Positions 352 to 6,372 of a stretch of 40,719 nt of DNA are shown here, one piece after another (the stretch's first letter is position 1; the number at the start of each line of letters is the position of its first letter). This DNA is from Nitrospiraceae bacterium (GTDB lineage: Bacteria > Nitrospirota > Nitrospiria > Nitrospirales > Nitrospiraceae). Location of the stretch: positions 1-40,719 of the forward strand of contig JBBIQV010000029.1 of assembly GCA_037442105.1 (NCBI GenBank), given 5' to 3'. The position numbers and the translations under genes are program-made. Below the pieces are notes generated by a model that ran no database searches, was not told where the DNA came from, and saw only the letters and a list, made by a program, of their open reading frames with translations.

Positions 352-720
352 TCAATGGGAACAGCACGCGGCTGCCGCATCAGACGGCGTTCCAGCACAG
401 GACTCTTTGTAAACGGCATAGGCTTTCAGGGCCCATTCCTCCCCGGGGCAGCCCTGCATGGTCATGGCGACTTCGAGAAACTCGATCAATTCCTCTTGTG
501 TGATACCTTTGTTGCAAGCCATCTGGACGTAAGCCCGAATGCAGGGCTCACACCGGATTGCAATCGAGATGGCCATGGCGGTGAGCAGTTTGTACTTCGA
601 TGCGACTGCCGCATCGCGATAGGCTTCTTGCCGCATCCGCAGCAGCCCGCCCGTGACTTTGGGGCTCAACTTTCTCAGTTCGGCGAATAGTCCAGTTTCA
701 ACTTTGGTTGTTTGATCCAT
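352..720 (-). CDS. Carboxymuconolactone decarboxylase / AhpD-like protein with CxxC and a C-terminal CC pair
   Basis: KYKLLTAMAISIAIRCEPCIRAY...GITQEELIEFLEVA is the CMD/AhpD signature. Ends AAACCSH. GGAGG-type RBS upstream. Confidence 0.85.
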   Translation of the reverse strand: MDQTTKVETGLFAELRKLSPKVTGGLLRMRQEAYRDAAVASKYKLLTAMAISIAIRCEPCIRAYVQMACNKGITQEELIEFLEVAMTMQGCPGEEWALKAYAVYKESCAGTPSDAAAACCSH

Positions 721-745: not shown

Positions 746-773
746 CGCCTCGCGCCTCTTGCCTCTCGCCTAT
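746..773. repeat. Degenerate heptamer tandem repeat (cgcctcg cgcctct tgcctct cgcctat)
   Basis: Four 7-nt units read directly in the spacer between merP and the CMD gene. Confidence 0.6.
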
Positions 774-1123
774 TTATCGAGCAGCCGCGCCTTGTACGTC
801 GACAGCGGGGTGCTGGCTGCTTCGATAGCCTTGACCAATGACTCCGCGCCCGCTTTCGCCGGATCGAACGTCACAGCAGCGCGCGCATCTCCGTAATCGG
901 AGAAGAAGACCCATTTCTTTCCCACGGTGAGTTCCACCGCAGTGACGCCGGACACTTTGCCGAGGGCGGTCTTCACGTCCTTGACGCAGACTCCACAGGT
1001 CATACCGTCAATGCGCAAGGTCACCGTCTGAAGTCCCTGGCCCTCAGCCGCCCATGTTTGAAGCCCGCTCAGGCTCAGCGTCATGATCCCGGCAAGGAGA
1101 GTCAATTGAATCGATCGCCACAT
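770..1123 (-). CDS. merP: Periplasmic heavy-metal-binding HMA protein (MerP-like)
   Basis: Signal peptide followed by VTLRIDGMTCGVC (GMTCxxC motif). Lies directly downstream of merT. Confidence 0.85.
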   Translation of the reverse strand: MWRSIQLTLLAGIMTLSLSGLQTWAAEGQGLQTVTLRIDGMTCGVCVKDVKTALGKVSGVTAVELTVGKKWVFFSDYGDARAAVTFDPAKAGAESLVKAIEAASTPLSTYKARLLDK

Positions 1124-1195: not shown

Positions 1196-1558
1196 TCACA
1201 ATCCAAGCCAGTACGGTGCCAAGACCAATGCAATCGCCACGGTCGCCATCAGCCACAGCAGCGTCCGATTCACACCATGTTTCGCTCCAGTCGCACACAT
1301 CATCCCTGGACCACAGGCGGGTTCCCGCTTTCGATAGGCGAGATAAAAGCTGGCGCCCAGCAAGAGCAACGTCAGGCCAATGAAGACCGGCCGATACGGC
1401 AAGAAGGCCTTGAGAAACCCCGCCGTCCCGGCAAGGAATCCTGTGGCCCCAACCCCCACGCCGAGGGCTGCGAACACCAGTGGCCCGATGCAGCAGAGAG
1501 AAGCGAAGAACGCCGCCACGAGCCCGCCGATCATCGTTGTCGCTTCACCTTTTGTCAT
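1196..1558 (-). CDS. merT: Mercuric ion transporter MerT
   Basis: ASLCCIGPLV in TM1, LPYRPVF, cytoplasmic ACGPGMMC Cys pair, three TM helices. Confidence 0.92.
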   Translation of the reverse strand: MTKGEATTMIGGLVAAFFASLCCIGPLVFAALGVGVGATGFLAGTAGFLKAFLPYRPVFIGLTLLLLGASFYLAYRKREPACGPGMMCATGAKHGVNRTLLWLMATVAIALVLAPYWLGL

Positions 1559-1617: not shown

Positions 1618-2067
1618 TCAGTCATCCCCGCTCCGGCCACCCTTTGCTCTTCCTGGCGCCTTGTTCTCATTTTCCAGGCTTGCCAGAATCGGACACTGTT
1701 CGGTGGGCTGACCCGCCCTGCAGGTGCGGATCAAGCGTTGCAGCGCCTTCGCTAGCGATTGCAAGTCGCGCACTTTGGCCTCAATGTGCTTCAGTTTGGC
1801 TTCTGCCCTTCGCTGCACATCCCGGCATCGCGCCTTTGAACTGATCCGCAGATCGAGGAGTTCTTCGATCTCATGGAGCGTGAAACCCAACCCTTGGGCG
1901 TTCTTGATGAGGCGTAGTCTTCTGTATGCTTCATCGCTGTACAACCGGTACCCAGACGGCTTTCGCGATGTCGGCGCCAGCAACTTCAGCCGCTCGTAGT
2001 ACCTGATTGTCTGGATATTCACGCCAACTTCTTTCGCAAGTTGCCCAATCGTTAATGCTGAGTCCAT
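1618..2067 (-). CDS. merR: Hg(II)-responsive MerR-family regulator
   Basis: TIGQLAKEVGVNIQTIRYYER HTH. Cys81/Cys116/Cys125 have the same spacing as the three Hg ligands of Tn501 MerR (82/117/126). Confidence 0.9.
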   Translation of the reverse strand: MDSALTIGQLAKEVGVNIQTIRYYERLKLLAPTSRKPSGYRLYSDEAYRRLRLIKNAQGLGFTLHEIEELLDLRISSKARCRDVQRRAEAKLKHIEAKVRDLQSLAKALQRLIRTCRAGQPTEQCPILASLENENKAPGRAKGGRSGDD

Positions 2068-2089: not shown

Positions 2090-2121
2090 ACTCTACACCC
2101 TGTACCATAGTACGGAGTCAA
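2090..2121 (-). promoter_or_regulatory. MerR operator-promoter of the merR-T-P operon
   Basis: TTGACT - 20 bp (CCGTAC TATG GTACAG GGTG) - TAGAGT. The GTAC-N4-GTAC dyad sits inside an overlong spacer, as in classical mer promoters. Confidence 0.9.
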
Positions 2122-2195
2122 GTGGGCTGTGGGTCACGCCGCCCTTTTGATTCGAGTGAAATGGGATACGGCATGTAGTTTGACAGAATGAGGAG

Positions 2196-2228
2196 GGGCG
2201 ACCGGTGCGCAGCCCCGGTCGCCCTTTT
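2196..2228. terminator. GC-rich hairpin, probable intrinsic terminator after the small peptide gene
   Basis: GGGCGACCGG (2196-2205) / CCGGTCGCCC (2215-2224) form a perfect 10-bp stem. The T-run is on the + side and only a weak one on the - side. Confidence 0.6.
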
Positions 2229-2244
2229 CTTCCATTGCCCTTTC

Positions 2245-2331
2245 TTATACAAAGAAGCTCTGCATCCACTGCCAGACTGTGGCAGCCGCCTCATACGGGC
2301 AGAAGCCGAGTGTTTCGACCCACGGGCACAT
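2245..2331 (-). CDS. Unannotated 28-aa peptide MCPWVETLGFCPYEAAATVWQWMQSFFV
   Basis: Near-perfect SD AGAAAGGAGGTG 6 nt upstream of ATG 2331, its own MerR-type promoter upstream and a hairpin downstream. Below the ORF-track length cutoff. Confidence 0.75.
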   Translation of the reverse strand: MCPWVETLGFCPYEAAATVWQWMQSFFV

Positions 2332-2356
2332 AGGCTTCACCTCCTTTCTGAGGCCG

Positions 2357-2388
2357 ATGCTACACCCGGTACCACGGTACCGAGTCAA
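2357..2388 (-). promoter_or_regulatory. Second MerR operator-promoter, driving the small peptide
   Basis: TTGACT - 20 bp (CGGTACC GT GGTACCG GGTG) - TAGCAT. Perfect 7-bp dyad with the same geometry as the promoter at 2090-2121. Confidence 0.88.
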
Positions 2389-2621
2389 GGGGGTGGGAAC
2401 GGCATGAAACTATCTGCCGGTTTGTAAGGATTGCGGACCTTGGACGACTGATTCATCTGACCGCTGCATCTAGCAACTGGATTCTTCCCTCTTCACTGTG
2501 AGGTGGCTTACAGACACAGCCTATCGGAAGCTATACCGTCCGCCAATACGGGATTGACGGGAATGGCAGGGATTGATACATAGACGTATCTCGATAGGTT
2601 CATTGAATGACGGGGGACGCT

Positions 2622-3809
2622 ATGGCGATCGACGAGATTACCCTAAAGGTCAGCGAACGATATGCGCGCGCGGCCGTGGCCGGCGAGCAGATGTGCTGCC
2701 CCACCGGCTACAACTTCGATGACCTCCGCTCGTTCATCCCTGATGAGGTCTTGAAAATCTCCTACGGTTGCGGGACGCCGGCGGGGTTGGACACGGTGCG
2801 CGAAGGAGAAACGGTGCTGGACATCGGCTCCGGGGGCGGGATCGATTGTTTTGAAGCCTCGCGGCGGGTCGGGCCGACCGGTCATGTCATCGGCATCGAC
2901 ATGACGGACCAGATGCTGGAGATCGCGCGTCGCAATGCGCCGATCGTGTCCGCTCATCTGGGGTATCCATCTTCTAACGTCGAGTTCCGCAAGGGGATGG
3001 CCGACGCGATGCCGGTCGAAGATGGCAGCGTCGATCTGATCATCTCCAACTGCGTGATCAATTTAGCTCCAGATAAGCGAAAGGTGTTCCATGAAATGTA
3101 CCGCGTGCTGAGACCTGGCGGACGCTTCACAATCTCGGATATCGTTTCCGACCAGATCGTGCCGCAGTACCTTGTCCACGACACGGAAAAGTGGGGCAAC
3201 TGTCTCTCCGGTGCCTTGCCGGTCAGCGAATATGTGGGCGGAATGGTCGAGGCGGGATTTCTCGGCGTCCATCAGATCAAATATATCCCTTGGCAGGTGA
3301 TCGACGGCATTCACTTCCTCTCCATAACTCTGACCGGTTACAAGCTGCCCGCTGTAATCGAACCGAACGGAGTCCGGTACGCGACACTCCGGGGCCCCTT
3401 TAGTCGGGTGACGGACGAACTGGGAACCGCCTACCAGCGCGGTATTCCGCAGGCCGTTGATACGCGCACTGTTGCGCTTCTTCAGACCCCGCCTGTTGCA
3501 CAACATTTCGTGTTGTCCGAGCAGCCACAACGGTTGACCCCAGGAGATCCGCGCTACGTGGCCGTTCTTCCCGAACAGACACCCTGCGTGTGGCAGGGGC
3601 ACTTTGTCATCTTCACCGGTCCTTTTGTTGCCGCAGCGGACGACGACCATCATCTCTTCCGGCGTGGGGAACCACTCGAAATCTGCTCAAAAACCTTGAA
3701 GGTGTTGGGAACCGACGGCTATGAGAAGCACTTTGCCATCATTAATCGGGCCGGTCGGTCGGTGTCGGGTGAAGCCGTGTCCTGTGCTCCAAATGGTGGC
3801 TGCTGTTGA
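2622..3809 (+). CDS. arsM: Arsenite S-adenosylmethionine methyltransferase, long form
   Basis: MCCP, SYGCGTP, LDIGSGGGIDC, ISNCVINL and WGNCLSGA carry the conserved ArsM Cys and SAM motifs. Ends CAPNGGCC. ATG 2622 preferred; ORF is open from 2607. Confidence 0.9.
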   Translation: MAIDEITLKVSERYARAAVAGEQMCCPTGYNFDDLRSFIPDEVLKISYGCGTPAGLDTVREGETVLDIGSGGGIDCFEASRRVGPTGHVIGIDMTDQMLEIARRNAPIVSAHLGYPSSNVEFRKGMADAMPVEDGSVDLIISNCVINLAPDKRKVFHEMYRVLRPGGRFTISDIVSDQIVPQYLVHDTEKWGNCLSGALPVSEYVGGMVEAGFLGVHQIKYIPWQVIDGIHFLSITLTGYKLPAVIEPNGVRYATLRGPFSRVTDELGTAYQRGIPQAVDTRTVALLQTPPVAQHFVLSEQPQRLTPGDPRYVAVLPEQTPCVWQGHFVIFTGPFVAAADDDHHLFRRGEPLEICSKTLKVLGTDGYEKHFAIINRAGRSVSGEAVSCAPNGGCC

Positions 3810-3821
3810 ATCAGGTGGCCT

Positions 3822-4160
3822 GTGGCGGCCGTGATATTGACTGAACGGCAATGTGCCAATGTCTTGCGTGCGTTGGCCGACGAAACGCGCTTGCGCCTTC
3901 TGGAATCCCTGCTCGCACGGGAGAAGTGCGTCACTGATCTTGTGCGCGAACTGCGCAAGTCGCAGCCACACATCTCGCATCATCTGCGGATTCTGCGCGG
4001 CGCCGGCCTGGTGGAAGGCCTCCGAGACGGACAGAAAGTGTGTTATCGCGTGACGCCCAGCGTTCAGCGGGTCCTCAAGAACCACCAGGGCCATGCCTTG
4101 GACTTTGGCTGCTGCCAAGTGAGTTTTCCAGAATCCGTGCTCATCCCCAAGGCCGGCTGA
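3822..4160 (+). CDS. arsR: ArsR/SmtB family transcriptional repressor
   Basis: LRALADETRLRLL...EKCVTDL...SQPHISHHLRILR winged HTH, with a C-terminal DFGCC. Confidence 0.9.
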   Translation: MAAVILTERQCANVLRALADETRLRLLESLLAREKCVTDLVRELRKSQPHISHHLRILRGAGLVEGLRDGQKVCYRVTPSVQRVLKNHQGHALDFGCCQVSFPESVLIPKAG

Positions 4161-4192
4161 CCACGCATGACCGCTCAACGCGAGGAGCATTC

Positions 4193-5233
4193 ATGGCGCT
4201 GACATTACTTGGACGTAAGAATTTACTCGCGTCATCAGCCGAACAACTTTCCGTTCTCGCGCGAACAGGGGCATGTCCCCCCTTCGAGTCGCGCCTCAGT
4301 CAAGCCGGCTTGCAGCCTCTCCTTGCCACGGGTATCACTGTTTTCCAGATCAACGTCGGAAAACTGTGCAATCAGACTTGCCGCCACTGCCATGTGGATG
4401 CCGGCCCGGACCGCACGGAGAGCATGACGCGCGACACGGCCGAACTGTGTATTCGGGCTCTGGCAAGGAACGACATTCCTACCGTCGATATCACCGGTGG
4501 GGCACCTGAGTTGAATTCAAGCTTTCGTTGGCTGGTTGAACAGTCTACGACGCTTGGGCGTCACGTGATGGATCGGTGCAACCTGTCGGTGCTCTTGCTT
4601 CCCTCTCAGGCAGACCTCACAGCATTCCTGGCGCAACATCGCGTCGAAATCGTTGCTTCCCTCCCCTATTATCGGCCATCCCAAACCGATGCCCAGCGGG
4701 GCGAAGGGGTATTCGACAAGTCTATCCAGGCCCTGCGACTTCTGAATACCTTCGGCTATGGCGTGGAGGGCAGCGGTTTGACGTTGAACCTGGTCTACAA
4801 TCCCGTGGGCGCCTTTCTTCCTCCTAGACAGGAATCCATCGAAGCCCAGTTCAGACGTGAATTGGCCAGTCGATACCACATCACATTCAATCATCTTTAT
4901 ACGATCACGAATATGCCCATCAGCCGTTTTCTGGAGTTCCTCATCGAGAGCGGCAACTACGAAGGCTATATGGAGCGGCTGGCCAACGCCTTCAATCCCG
5001 CCGCTGCAGCCGGCGTCATGTGCCGCTATACCCTCTCGGTGGGCTGGGACGGCACCCTCTATGATTGTGACTTCAACCAGATGTTGGATCTCCCCGTCGA
5101 TCACGGAGCGCCTCGACACATCCGCGATTTTGATCCCGCTCGTCTCCACACCAGACAGATCGTCACCCGCAATCACTGTTACGGTTGCACCGCCGGCTCC
5201 GGCTCGTCCTGCGGCGGAGCGGTCACAACCTAG
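4193..5233 (+). CDS. arsS: Arsenosugar biosynthesis radical SAM protein ArsS
   Basis: QINVGKLCNQTCRHCHVDAGP (CxxxCxxC), DITGGAPEL, LYDCDFNQML and C-terminal HCYGCTAGSGSSCGG. RBS GAGGAG precedes ATG 4193. Confidence 0.9.
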   Translation: MALTLLGRKNLLASSAEQLSVLARTGACPPFESRLSQAGLQPLLATGITVFQINVGKLCNQTCRHCHVDAGPDRTESMTRDTAELCIRALARNDIPTVDITGGAPELNSSFRWLVEQSTTLGRHVMDRCNLSVLLLPSQADLTAFLAQHRVEIVASLPYYRPSQTDAQRGEGVFDKSIQALRLLNTFGYGVEGSGLTLNLVYNPVGAFLPPRQESIEAQFRRELASRYHITFNHLYTITNMPISRFLEFLIESGNYEGYMERLANAFNPAAAAGVMCRYTLSVGWDGTLYDCDFNQMLDLPVDHGAPRHIRDFDPARLHTRQIVTRNHCYGCTAGSGSSCGGAVTT

Positions 5234-5238
5234 GCCAT

Positions 5239-6372
5239 ATGGAACTCGCGCTCGTCACCTATCTGCTGGTTGTGGCCCTCGCGTTCGCGAACGGCACCAA
5301 TGACGTGTCCAAAGCCATCGCCACATTAGTCGGCAGCGGCGTCACGAACTATCGCACGGCCATCTTGTGGGGGACGATATGGACGATGGTGGGCGCGAGC
5401 GCTTCCGCTTTCGTGTCCGCCGCGATGGTGAAAACCTTCAGTAGCGGGTTGATCCAGCCCGACTTCGTCATTCCACCAGAGCTTGCTCCGGCCGTGCTGA
5501 CCGGTGCCATGACCTGGGTCTTGGTCGCGTCGCGGACAGGGTTTCCGGTCTCGACCACCCATGCCTTGACCGGTGCAATCGTCGGGGCTGGCCTGATAGC
5601 CTCCGGTCTGCAAGGTCTGGTATGGCCGGCCATTCTGAACAAGATCGTGCTGCCTTTGCTTCTGAGCCCTCTGTTAGCCCTGACCGTTTCAGTCTTGATC
5701 CATCCTGCCGTCCGGATGTTGGCGGAGCGGTGGGAAGGGTCCTGTTTGTGCGTCATGCCGACCTCGCGCGCGTTAGTGACCATCGACGCGAAAGGAATGA
5801 CCCGCACACTTTTTCAAGCGACCGGCTTCGGATCACCGGTGATCGCAGTTCCAGCCCAGTGCGAACGTGACGGCCTCCAGGGAATCACCATCGGCCTGGA
5901 CAGCATCCATTGGATCTCGAGCGGACTTGCGTCGCTTGCCCGGGGAACGAACGACACACCGAAGATCGTGGCAATGTTGGTGCTCGGCAGTACGGTCGCG
6001 TCCTGGCCCGGCTCCATCTCCAAGATCGCTTCATTCCTCGGTGTTACATTGTTGATGGGGCTTGGCAGTTATGTTGGAGGTCTTCGCGTCACGAAGGTGC
6101 TGGCTGAGAAGGTGACGCGAATGGACCATGCCGAAGGCCTCTCGGCAAATTTGACAACGTCTTCCCTGGTGATGATATCGGCCACGATGGGTCTCCCTGT
6201 TTCGACAACGCATGTCAGCAGCTCCGCCATCATCGGTATCGGGCTGCTGAAGGGCCTGAGCGCCGTTCGCTGGACAACCGTCCGCGACGTGGTGCTGGCC
6301 TGGATCGTGACGCTCCCCGCCGCGGCCGTGCTTGCCTGCCTCGCCTACTTCATCCTCGATCGACTACTGTAA
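5239..6372 (+). CDS. PiT-family inorganic phosphate/anion permease
   Basis: Duplicated PiT signatures ANGTNDVSKAIAT / ARGTNDTPKI and PVSTTH twice. ATG 5239 lies just after the arsS stop. Confidence 0.88.
   Translation: MELALVTYLLVVALAFANGTNDVSKAIATLVGSGVTNYRTAILWGTIWTMVGASASAFVSAAMVKTFSSGLIQPDFVIPPELAPAVLTGAMTWVLVASRTGFPVSTTHALTGAIVGAGLIASGLQGLVWPAILNKIVLPLLLSPLLALTVSVLIHPAVRMLAERWEGSCLCVMPTSRALVTIDAKGMTRTLFQATGFGSPVIAVPAQCERDGLQGITIGLDSIHWISSGLASLARGTNDTPKIVAMLVLGSTVASWPGSISKIASFLGVTLLMGLGSYVGGLRVTKVLAEKVTRMDHAEGLSANLTTSSLVMISATMGLPVSTTHVSSSAIIGIGLLKGLSAVRWTTVRDVVLAWIVTLPAAAVLACLAYFILDRLL

Follow-up and report, generated by a model that had tools for sequence, protein, structure and literature searches.

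A conserved two-cysteine micropeptide gene with its own MerR-type operator in Nitrospiraceae

Described metal regulons and the locus in the window

The inventory of mer genes is regarded as almost complete, and genes of fewer than 30 codons are mostly missed in annotation. Bacterial metallothioneins hold many Cys residues in a metal-thiolate cluster; the stress-induced small proteins AcrZ, KdpF and MgtS (<50 aa) carry a conserved hydrophobic transmembrane helix and have one partner each, a transporter which they bind as accessory subunits and whose activity they alter. In the text available for PMC1526738 the MerR signal is given as ACCGTGTAC-(4)-GTACAGGGT inside a 20-bp spacer; spacers of 19-20 bp are called a hallmark of MerR-family activation in the accessible part of PMC9909328, and the metal-binding pattern of MerR is C82/C117/C126 in that of PMC7911910. 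PbrD is named among metal-sequestering small proteins in the same part of PMC9909328, as are the cytoplasmic copper sequesterers MymT and Csp in the accessible sections of PMC11672702, which describe nothing like the peptide reported here.

We analysed a window of 40,719 nucleotides, positions 1 to 40,719 of contig JBBIQV010000029.1 from a Nitrospiraceae assembly (GCA_037442105.1), in which the spacer between merR and arsM had been read, from the letters alone, as a complete small transcription unit on the minus strand. Each element of this sequence-only reading was located: a -35 element TTGACT (2383..2388; TTGAC was required by our search pattern and is seen in 55 copies of the family described below), a 20-bp spacer holding the perfect 7-2-7 dyad CGGTACC-GT-GGTACCG (2367..2382; 9 of 10 pairs when extended), a -10 element TAGCAT (2357..2362), whose last T lies outside the search pattern and is nevertheless kept in all 55 operator-bearing copies, a strong Shine-Dalgarno sequence AGAAAGGAGGTG (2338..2349) 6 nt ahead of the start codon, an ORF (2245..2331) running from ATG at 2331 to TAA at 2245, and a GC-rich hairpin (2196..2224), all on the minus strand. 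The ORF encodes a 28-aa micropeptide with C2-x8-C11-P12 followed by a Trp-rich, putatively amphipathic helix. A Shine-Dalgarno-like motif lies upstream of 99 of the 100 copies; the remaining one begins at a contig end.

The palindrome, lying between the -35 element and the -10 element within the 19-20 bp spacer, is a MerR-type GTAC-(4)-GTAC signal and not a CueR or ZntR signal, also in the logo of the 55 copies, and its right arm GTACCGGGT agrees with the published GTACAGGGT at 8 of 9 positions (PMC1526738, available text). The second operator-promoter, TTGACT-20-TAGAGT (2090..2121, minus strand), serves merR-merT-merP-CMD-TPR; as had been remarked, it lies 267 bp away and has like geometry, the peptide operator being slightly more symmetric (9 versus 8 of 12 pairs, 7 versus 4 contiguous). 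A scan that tolerated two mismatches in the GTAC cores found only these two MerR-type promoters in the 2.81-Mb assembly, where the chance expectation of the exact operator-promoter pattern is 0.0005. By its sequence the peptide promoter falls in the MerR class and is nothing unusual there; it would be activated by the adjacent MerR. It shares with the MerR-activated mer promoters the palindrome, the overlong 20-bp spacer and the adjacent three-Cys regulator, as these are given in the accessible parts of PMC1526738, PMC9909328 and PMC7911910; it differs in serving a gene of 28 codons that has a promoter copy to itself, merR being co-directional under a separate activatable promoter.

The MerR-family regulator (1618..2067, minus strand) has C81/C116/C125, a divalent-metal, Hg-type pattern, and is the sole MerR-like match in the assembly. 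Its metal is likely Hg(II); its best model is TIGR02051 at 131 bits against a cut-off of 150.85, with the ZntR model at 127 bits, and this score under the curated MerR cut-off makes Hg specificity no more than probable. On the same strand lie genes for a MerT-family transporter (1196..1558; PF02411), a MerP-like HMA protein whose N-terminal leader is hydrophobic (770..1123), a CMD/AhpD-like CxxC protein (352..720; PF02627) and a TPR protein truncated by the contig end (1..305), after which merA comes next in relatives (L053, L073, L162). No merA scored above cut-off in the 87%-complete assembly; since the contig stops within the TPR gene, the genome may still carry one. On the other side, outside the peptide unit, an arsM-like methyltransferase gene (2607..3809, plus strand) is divergent and the first of arsM-arsR-arsS-PiT (2607-6372, plus strand), which stands back to back with the peptide unit and includes an arsenosugar-type radical SAM ArsS over cut-off; arsM was recognised near 10 of the 100 peptide copies.

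The product had been proposed to lie outside the known mer genes, and it indeed matches no profile of the mer protein families T, P, C, E, F, G, H and D. With MerP, MerT, MerC, MerE, MerF, MerG, MerH and MerD, as far as these are treated in the available part of PMC3466566, it has in common a Cys pair, MerR control and an optional place in mer loci; unlike them it is far shorter, has no transmembrane span, HMA fold or HTH, and occurs in Cu-type regulons as well. Likeness to the metallothioneins MymT and SmtA, to PbrD and to Csp lies in small size and in thiol-based buffering upon metal induction as the proposed role, but the peptide matches none of them in sequence, is predicted to form an ordered amphipathic helix and has two Cys only in 28 residues, and was rejected as a bacterial metallothionein on the last count. 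With AcrZ, KdpF and MgtS it has in common a length below 50 aa, a conserved hydrophobic helix and putative induction by stress; it departs from them in its Cys pair, in a helix of surface type and in the lack of any one transporter as a regular neighbour; a transmembrane modulator of their type was likewise rejected, the maximum 19-residue KD hydropathy being 0.69 (family mean 0.50) and the predicted helix 16 residues long. The CruR/CutF copper-responsive upstream ORFs also have two Cys and lie near copper genes in the available text of PMC9426467, whereas the peptide, at 28 aa, has no signal peptide and is often upstream of nothing; it lacks the CxxC and the C-terminal RAPP arrest motif that mark an operon-heading CruR/DUF2946 ORF in that text, and this assignment too was dropped. 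The peptide belongs to none of these groups, although it may work like the metallothioneins or the modulators. A literature search that covered few subscription papers and no supplements, with several sources available in part, returned no description of it, and it is apparently an undescribed small-protein family within known metal regulons, with a putative function.

Coding selection and distribution of the family

A profile search found homologues in 50 of 371 Nitrospiraceae genomes (about 13%), belonging to 19 of 39 genera. In a sample of the phylum the peptide was present in 5 of 50 genomes of the family and in 0 of 250 genomes outside it, except for one partial match at E 0.008. Twenty-nine loci came from the genome collection. 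For 26 of them the record title gives Nitrospira, Nitrospiraceae, Nitrospirota or Nitrospirae; of the other three, one is labelled “Proteobacteria bacterium,” another “Nitrosospira,” and the third is a marginal non-member. Pooled with 74 metagenome loci, they gave 100 distinct copies with 97 protein sequences; 66 of the copies have 28 aa, 12 have 25-26 aa, 12 belong to a long type of 36-44 aa, and 10 fall outside these classes. As these copies were collected mostly through protein similarity and a pattern requiring Cys, their conservation is inflated, which is controlled in part by a DNA-anchored search, independent of protein similarity, and by an HMM scan free of the Cys requirement. The DNA search matched 16 of 61 genomes, the source genome included, and at eight places overlapping the ORF, in seven other genomes, the ORF is intact with both Cys; the broken frames or lost Cys that would have spoken against the sequence-only reading were not seen there.

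In a 44-row alignment M1, C2, G9, C11 and P12 are invariant, and C2, W4, G9, F10, C11, P12 and W22 do not change among the 66 unique 28-aa copies. Variability in these 66 is 0.37 at third codon positions against 0.15 and 0.10 at the others, pN/pS is 0.28, and there are no in-frame stops, while every other frame is broken by stops in 13-54 copies; the stop at codon 29 is TGA in 35, TAA in 21 and TAG in 10. Maximum likelihood gave an omega of about 0.19 (lnL -2061 versus -2200 at omega 1, with kappa fixed at 2). Both the retention of the Cys pair and the synonymous bias anticipated earlier are present. With purifying selection in one frame and with start, stop and Shine-Dalgarno sequence conserved, as expected of a small coding ORF, the 28-codon ORF is by these sequence measures a real, conserved protein-coding gene. 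A chance ORF or a non-coding RNA was ruled out by the frame-specific selection, the best Rfam match having E 0.39 and the mRNA fold a z of -1.2 against shuffles. This is a selected 28-aa family with a dedicated MerR operator, in a bacterial family to which nitrifiers of key importance in wastewater, soil and groundwater belong.

Decay of copies occurs, in a minority. The HMM scan without a Cys demand yielded two extra long-type copies with an internal TGA, a copy whose initial three codons are missing, another that starts at TTG, one truncated at a contig end, and a single non-member; two further TGA-bearing copies came from the family-genome profile search, the database protein P0040 lacks C2, and several short copies have shifted stops (19, 31, 33, 52, 54 and 96 aa). 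Selenocysteine at the codon-7 TGA of some long-type copies was considered and rejected: the TGA stands for Trp, not Cys, and is read as gene decay.

The description of the gene as unannotated is right for the exact sequence, which is absent from a collection of 15 billion, but not for the family: a homologue in Nitrospira defluvii is annotated, with an upstream start, as hypothetical protein NSPZN2_40312. No Pfam or NCBIfam family corresponds to the peptide (35 members checked), with four single-member Pfam matches only (E 0.017-0.076); PDB sequences gave a best E of 1.2, the ESM Atlas no usable match, Foldseek with a 41-aa long-type model no match at E <= 0.001, and plasmids, phages and IMG/VR none. 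HMMER against 1.84 billion representatives returned 17 matches, all plainly members of the peptide family. At two-paralogue loci (L046:2188-2274, L053:5075-5182, L113:1649-1780) a copy of the short type precedes merR, and a longer, Arg-rich type with a W-x-P-V-x-W-like motif at its end and no hairpin lies between merR and merB.

Regulatory placement and genomic context

The placement of the 100 copies is varied: 55 have their own MerR operator, 56-67 nt ahead of the start, 18 lie inside merR operons, 8 behind a regulator with a CueR/HmrR-type box, 2 behind csoR, 7 with the gene U8 and 10 elsewhere. The group of eight stands directly behind another MerR-family regulator with the CueR/HmrR-like box ACCTTCC...GGAAGG; CueR, MerR and CadR models score about equally on this regulator, all below cut-off, and its link to copper is drawn from the box and the neighbouring cusCBA. 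The group of seven lies within 800 nt downstream of U8, which encodes a secreted, two-Cys, leader-like product. Counting recognised genes within about 5 kb, 26 copies have mer structural genes but no copper genes near, 35 have copper genes but no mer structural genes, 11 have both kinds and 28 have neither, figures which are lower bounds because contigs are short and divergent merT genes are missed. The peptide is the first cistron of merT-merP-CMD operons at three loci (L121, L150, L157) and stands alone under its promoter at the divergent loci.

Among genomes with merA, 15 of 42 carry the peptide; it was not found in the other 27, nor in 71 of 109 genomes with merR, these assemblies being incomplete. 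The window's merR was matched in 38 of 50 carrier genomes against 71 of 321 non-carriers, a comparison in which kin are not independent and assemblies are incomplete. The proposal that the peptide is a new member of the mer regulon therefore holds in one respect, its own MerR-type operator beside a three-Cys MerR, but is too narrow in another, since copies also stand behind the CueR/HmrR-box regulator, csoR and U8. Judged from this distribution, the peptide is an optional soft-metal-response gene, neither mer-only nor core mer, which most mer genomes do without; that it recurs behind three types of sensor suggests an overlap between these MerR regulons and copper handling.

Several neighbouring genes deserve a description of their own. 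The second MerR-family regulator (L095:4376-4900(+), L093, L096, L122, L178) has a tail of the form CPPL-x4-VCCLIE and, behind TTGCAC, a box like that of CueR/HmrR, gave no curated model over cut-off, and heads peptide-U8-cusCBA. U8 and U46 are secreted proteins of 116-126 aa (L054:3509-3865(-), L095:5222-5578(+), L063:2081-2440(-), L056:3757-4134(+) and about 25 more) whose N-terminus is signal-like and whose C-terminal VLRI-stop is near-invariant; two Cys are conserved. Their genes lie upstream of cusC, a multicopper oxidase gene or the micropeptide gene. Apart from the tail, which differs, the proteins resemble nascent-chain copper sensors of the CruR/CutF type, and among named Atlas clusters those nearest to them, at 0.94, are DUF2946-like. 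The window's genome gave no U8 match at E <= 1e-10. At L084, L091, L092, L171 and L176 an Hg-type MerR gene, under its own GTAC-type operator and divergent from the peptide, is followed on its own strand by CMD and, at some of these loci, by ECF sigma, HMA, cupredoxin and copA genes; the MerR-type regulon there seems, from gene order, to extend to copper export.

A merR-family gene lies within 1 kb of 79 of the 100 copies, and 129 distinct operators, a sample biased in that its loci were retrieved through the peptide, are split between 56 before the peptide, 72 before merR (64 by pattern, 8 by eye) and one before neither. Such pairing would suit a feedback switch on the sensor, a miniature MerD-like role in which the peptide strips metal from MerR or docks on it and so ends induction; its isolation under its own promoter at the divergent loci fits this as well, as does the C-x8-CP-helix, which copies the spacing of the MerR metal loop C116-x8-C125-P. 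We consider a switch of this kind rather improbable: the peptide is found behind csoR and U8 as well, where no nearby merR-family gene was recognised, 12 of the 50 carrier genomes gave no match to the window's merR at E <= 1e-30, the likeness to the MerR loop goes no further than C and CP, and a Trp-rich amphipathic helix suits a membrane. It is also doubtful that the peptide is a stand-alone, 28-residue MerR-loop mimic (C-x8-CP-helix), tethered to the membrane surface in MerR, CueR-type and CsoR regulons, that would compete with the sensors for Hg or Cu and set threshold and shut-off; if true, it would amount to a form of feedback by small proteins that the available parts of the literature do not list for metal regulons.

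The hairpin after the stop has a perfect 10-bp stem (13-nt arms, 92% complementary), as the sequence-only reading had it, but as a terminator of the peptide mRNA it departs from the textbook intrinsic type: the coding strand continues as CTCCTCAT, the hairpin is absent from the intrinsic-terminator listing for the window, and, as its T-run is on the plus-strand side, it is likely to be at best a leaky terminator or 3' stabiliser. A stem of at least 9 bp follows 74 of the 81 short copies, with 53 different stem sequences; long-type copies have no such stem after the stop. On the plus strand (2196-2233), where the T-run lies, no gene terminates near, bar a 79-codon antisense frame that begins at 2188 and has no Pfam match.

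Since these hairpins lie close behind the stop and often have no U-tract, and since merR (L172) or merT (L121, L150, L157) may come next with no second recognised operator between, the ORF might be a leader or attenuator acting in cis, setting read-through into merR or merT, with a product that has no role in trans. We find this most improbable. The window's merR has its own operator-promoter, which also argues against the earlier caveat that the peptide promoter serves for mere read-through into merR; for 27 of the 81 short copies the gene recognised next lies on the other strand, many copies are internal or last cistrons, the motifs of CruR are lacking, and the whole mRNA folds no better than its shuffles.

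Predicted product and its possible roles

AlphaFold2 predicts, for a 30-aa homologue (55 rows), a short helix at 5-10, a GFCP turn and a 16-residue helix at 14-29 (pLDDT 81, pTM 0.34), and a like layout for the long type (pLDDT 68). The predicted fold is a helix-turn-amphipathic helix in which C2 and C11 would be close, with neither a transmembrane span nor a signal peptide predicted. That the peptide is amphipathic, as had been claimed, is clear for the family (mean moment 0.42 +/- 0.05), whereas the window copy is borderline (0.30 versus 0.16 for shuffles, p = 0.053).

We propose, with moderate confidence, that the peptide is an induced two-thiol buffer for Hg(II) or Cu(I) at the inner membrane face. 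A soft metal entering the cell would cause the sensor to switch on the tiny, strongly translated unit; the near-perfect Shine-Dalgarno sequence, the tiny monocistronic layout and the 3' hairpin would make for high peptide output. The product would, by prediction, rest flat against the inner membrane on its cytoplasmic side and coat it, where C2 and C11 could grip one Hg(II) between them, or at other loci Cu(I)/Ag(I), in linear S-metal-S geometry, so that the peptide would act as a fast stoichiometric buffer or hand-off site from which metal passes to MerA, CMD, CopA or an efflux system. The metals of MerR-, CueR- and CsoR-type sensors share thiol-binding chemistry, and a buffer would explain both the reuse behind three sensor types and the absence of a single fixed partner. 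The presence of both such promoters of the assembly at this locus, the match to the MerR signal, the invariant Cys pair, the purifying selection and the placement behind three kinds of metal-sensor gene all support the buffer, as do the commoner occurrence of merR in carrier genomes, the predicted fold with its low hydropathy, and the MerT fusion described below. Against it, the invariance of W4, G9, F10 and W22 in the 28-aa type is more than a bare chelator needs and points to a partner protein; with a single metal for 28 residues the capacity is low; the peptide was not found in many merA and merR genomes, as noted above; and the regulator scores under the curated MerR cut-off. Should the peptide bind Hg or Cu, it would rank with the smallest metal-defence proteins in nature, easily synthesised and directly testable, a new part for bacterial heavy-metal defence and a candidate part for biosensors or biosorbents.

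The Cys pair could also be a disulfide instead of a metal site, a further point against the buffer. On a redox reading the peptide would be a sacrificial thiol that takes up oxidation caused by metal and is then reduced again by the CMD/AhpD-like CxxC protein encoded nearby; C-x8-C can presumably form a ring, and CMD, the commonest neighbour after merR, is near 40 of the 100 copies. The other 60 have no recognised CMD nearby and the operators in control are of metal-sensor type, which makes this very unlikely.

A protein partner of the kind hinted at by the invariant aromatic face could be a metal transporter, MerT, CopA or CusA, which the peptide would bind as a small accessory subunit and whose activity it would alter once its Cys pair is metal-loaded. 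The operons that it heads with merT, merP and CMD fit this reading, as do two gene fusions: in one lineage the first 27 residues are joined in frame to the N-terminus of MerT, which is cytoplasmic, in two variants that both have the Cys pair, and a degenerate-looking fusion to a MerP-like protein is seen in P0037. The MerT fusion is weak evidence, here and for the buffer, being confined to a single lineage in which merR of the locus carries a premature stop. With no transmembrane-grade hydrophobic span, a mostly monocistronic layout with hairpin, and no single transporter partner (within about 5 kb of the 100 copies, merT was recognised for at least 20, cusA for at least 20 and copA for at least 17), we hold a transporter modulator to be unlikely, and retain the two-thiol buffer as the preferred reading.

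The position in MerT that is occupied by the peptide in this fusion holds a MerB-like domain at other loci (L066, L116, L167). Both domains of these in-frame MerB-like lyase-MerT fusions are below curated cut-offs, and a SaoL-type model almost equals the MerB score; the fusions are 363-405 aa long and lie at L066:2374-3462(+), L116:711-1925(+), L167:948-1850(+) and L053:3827-4972(-).
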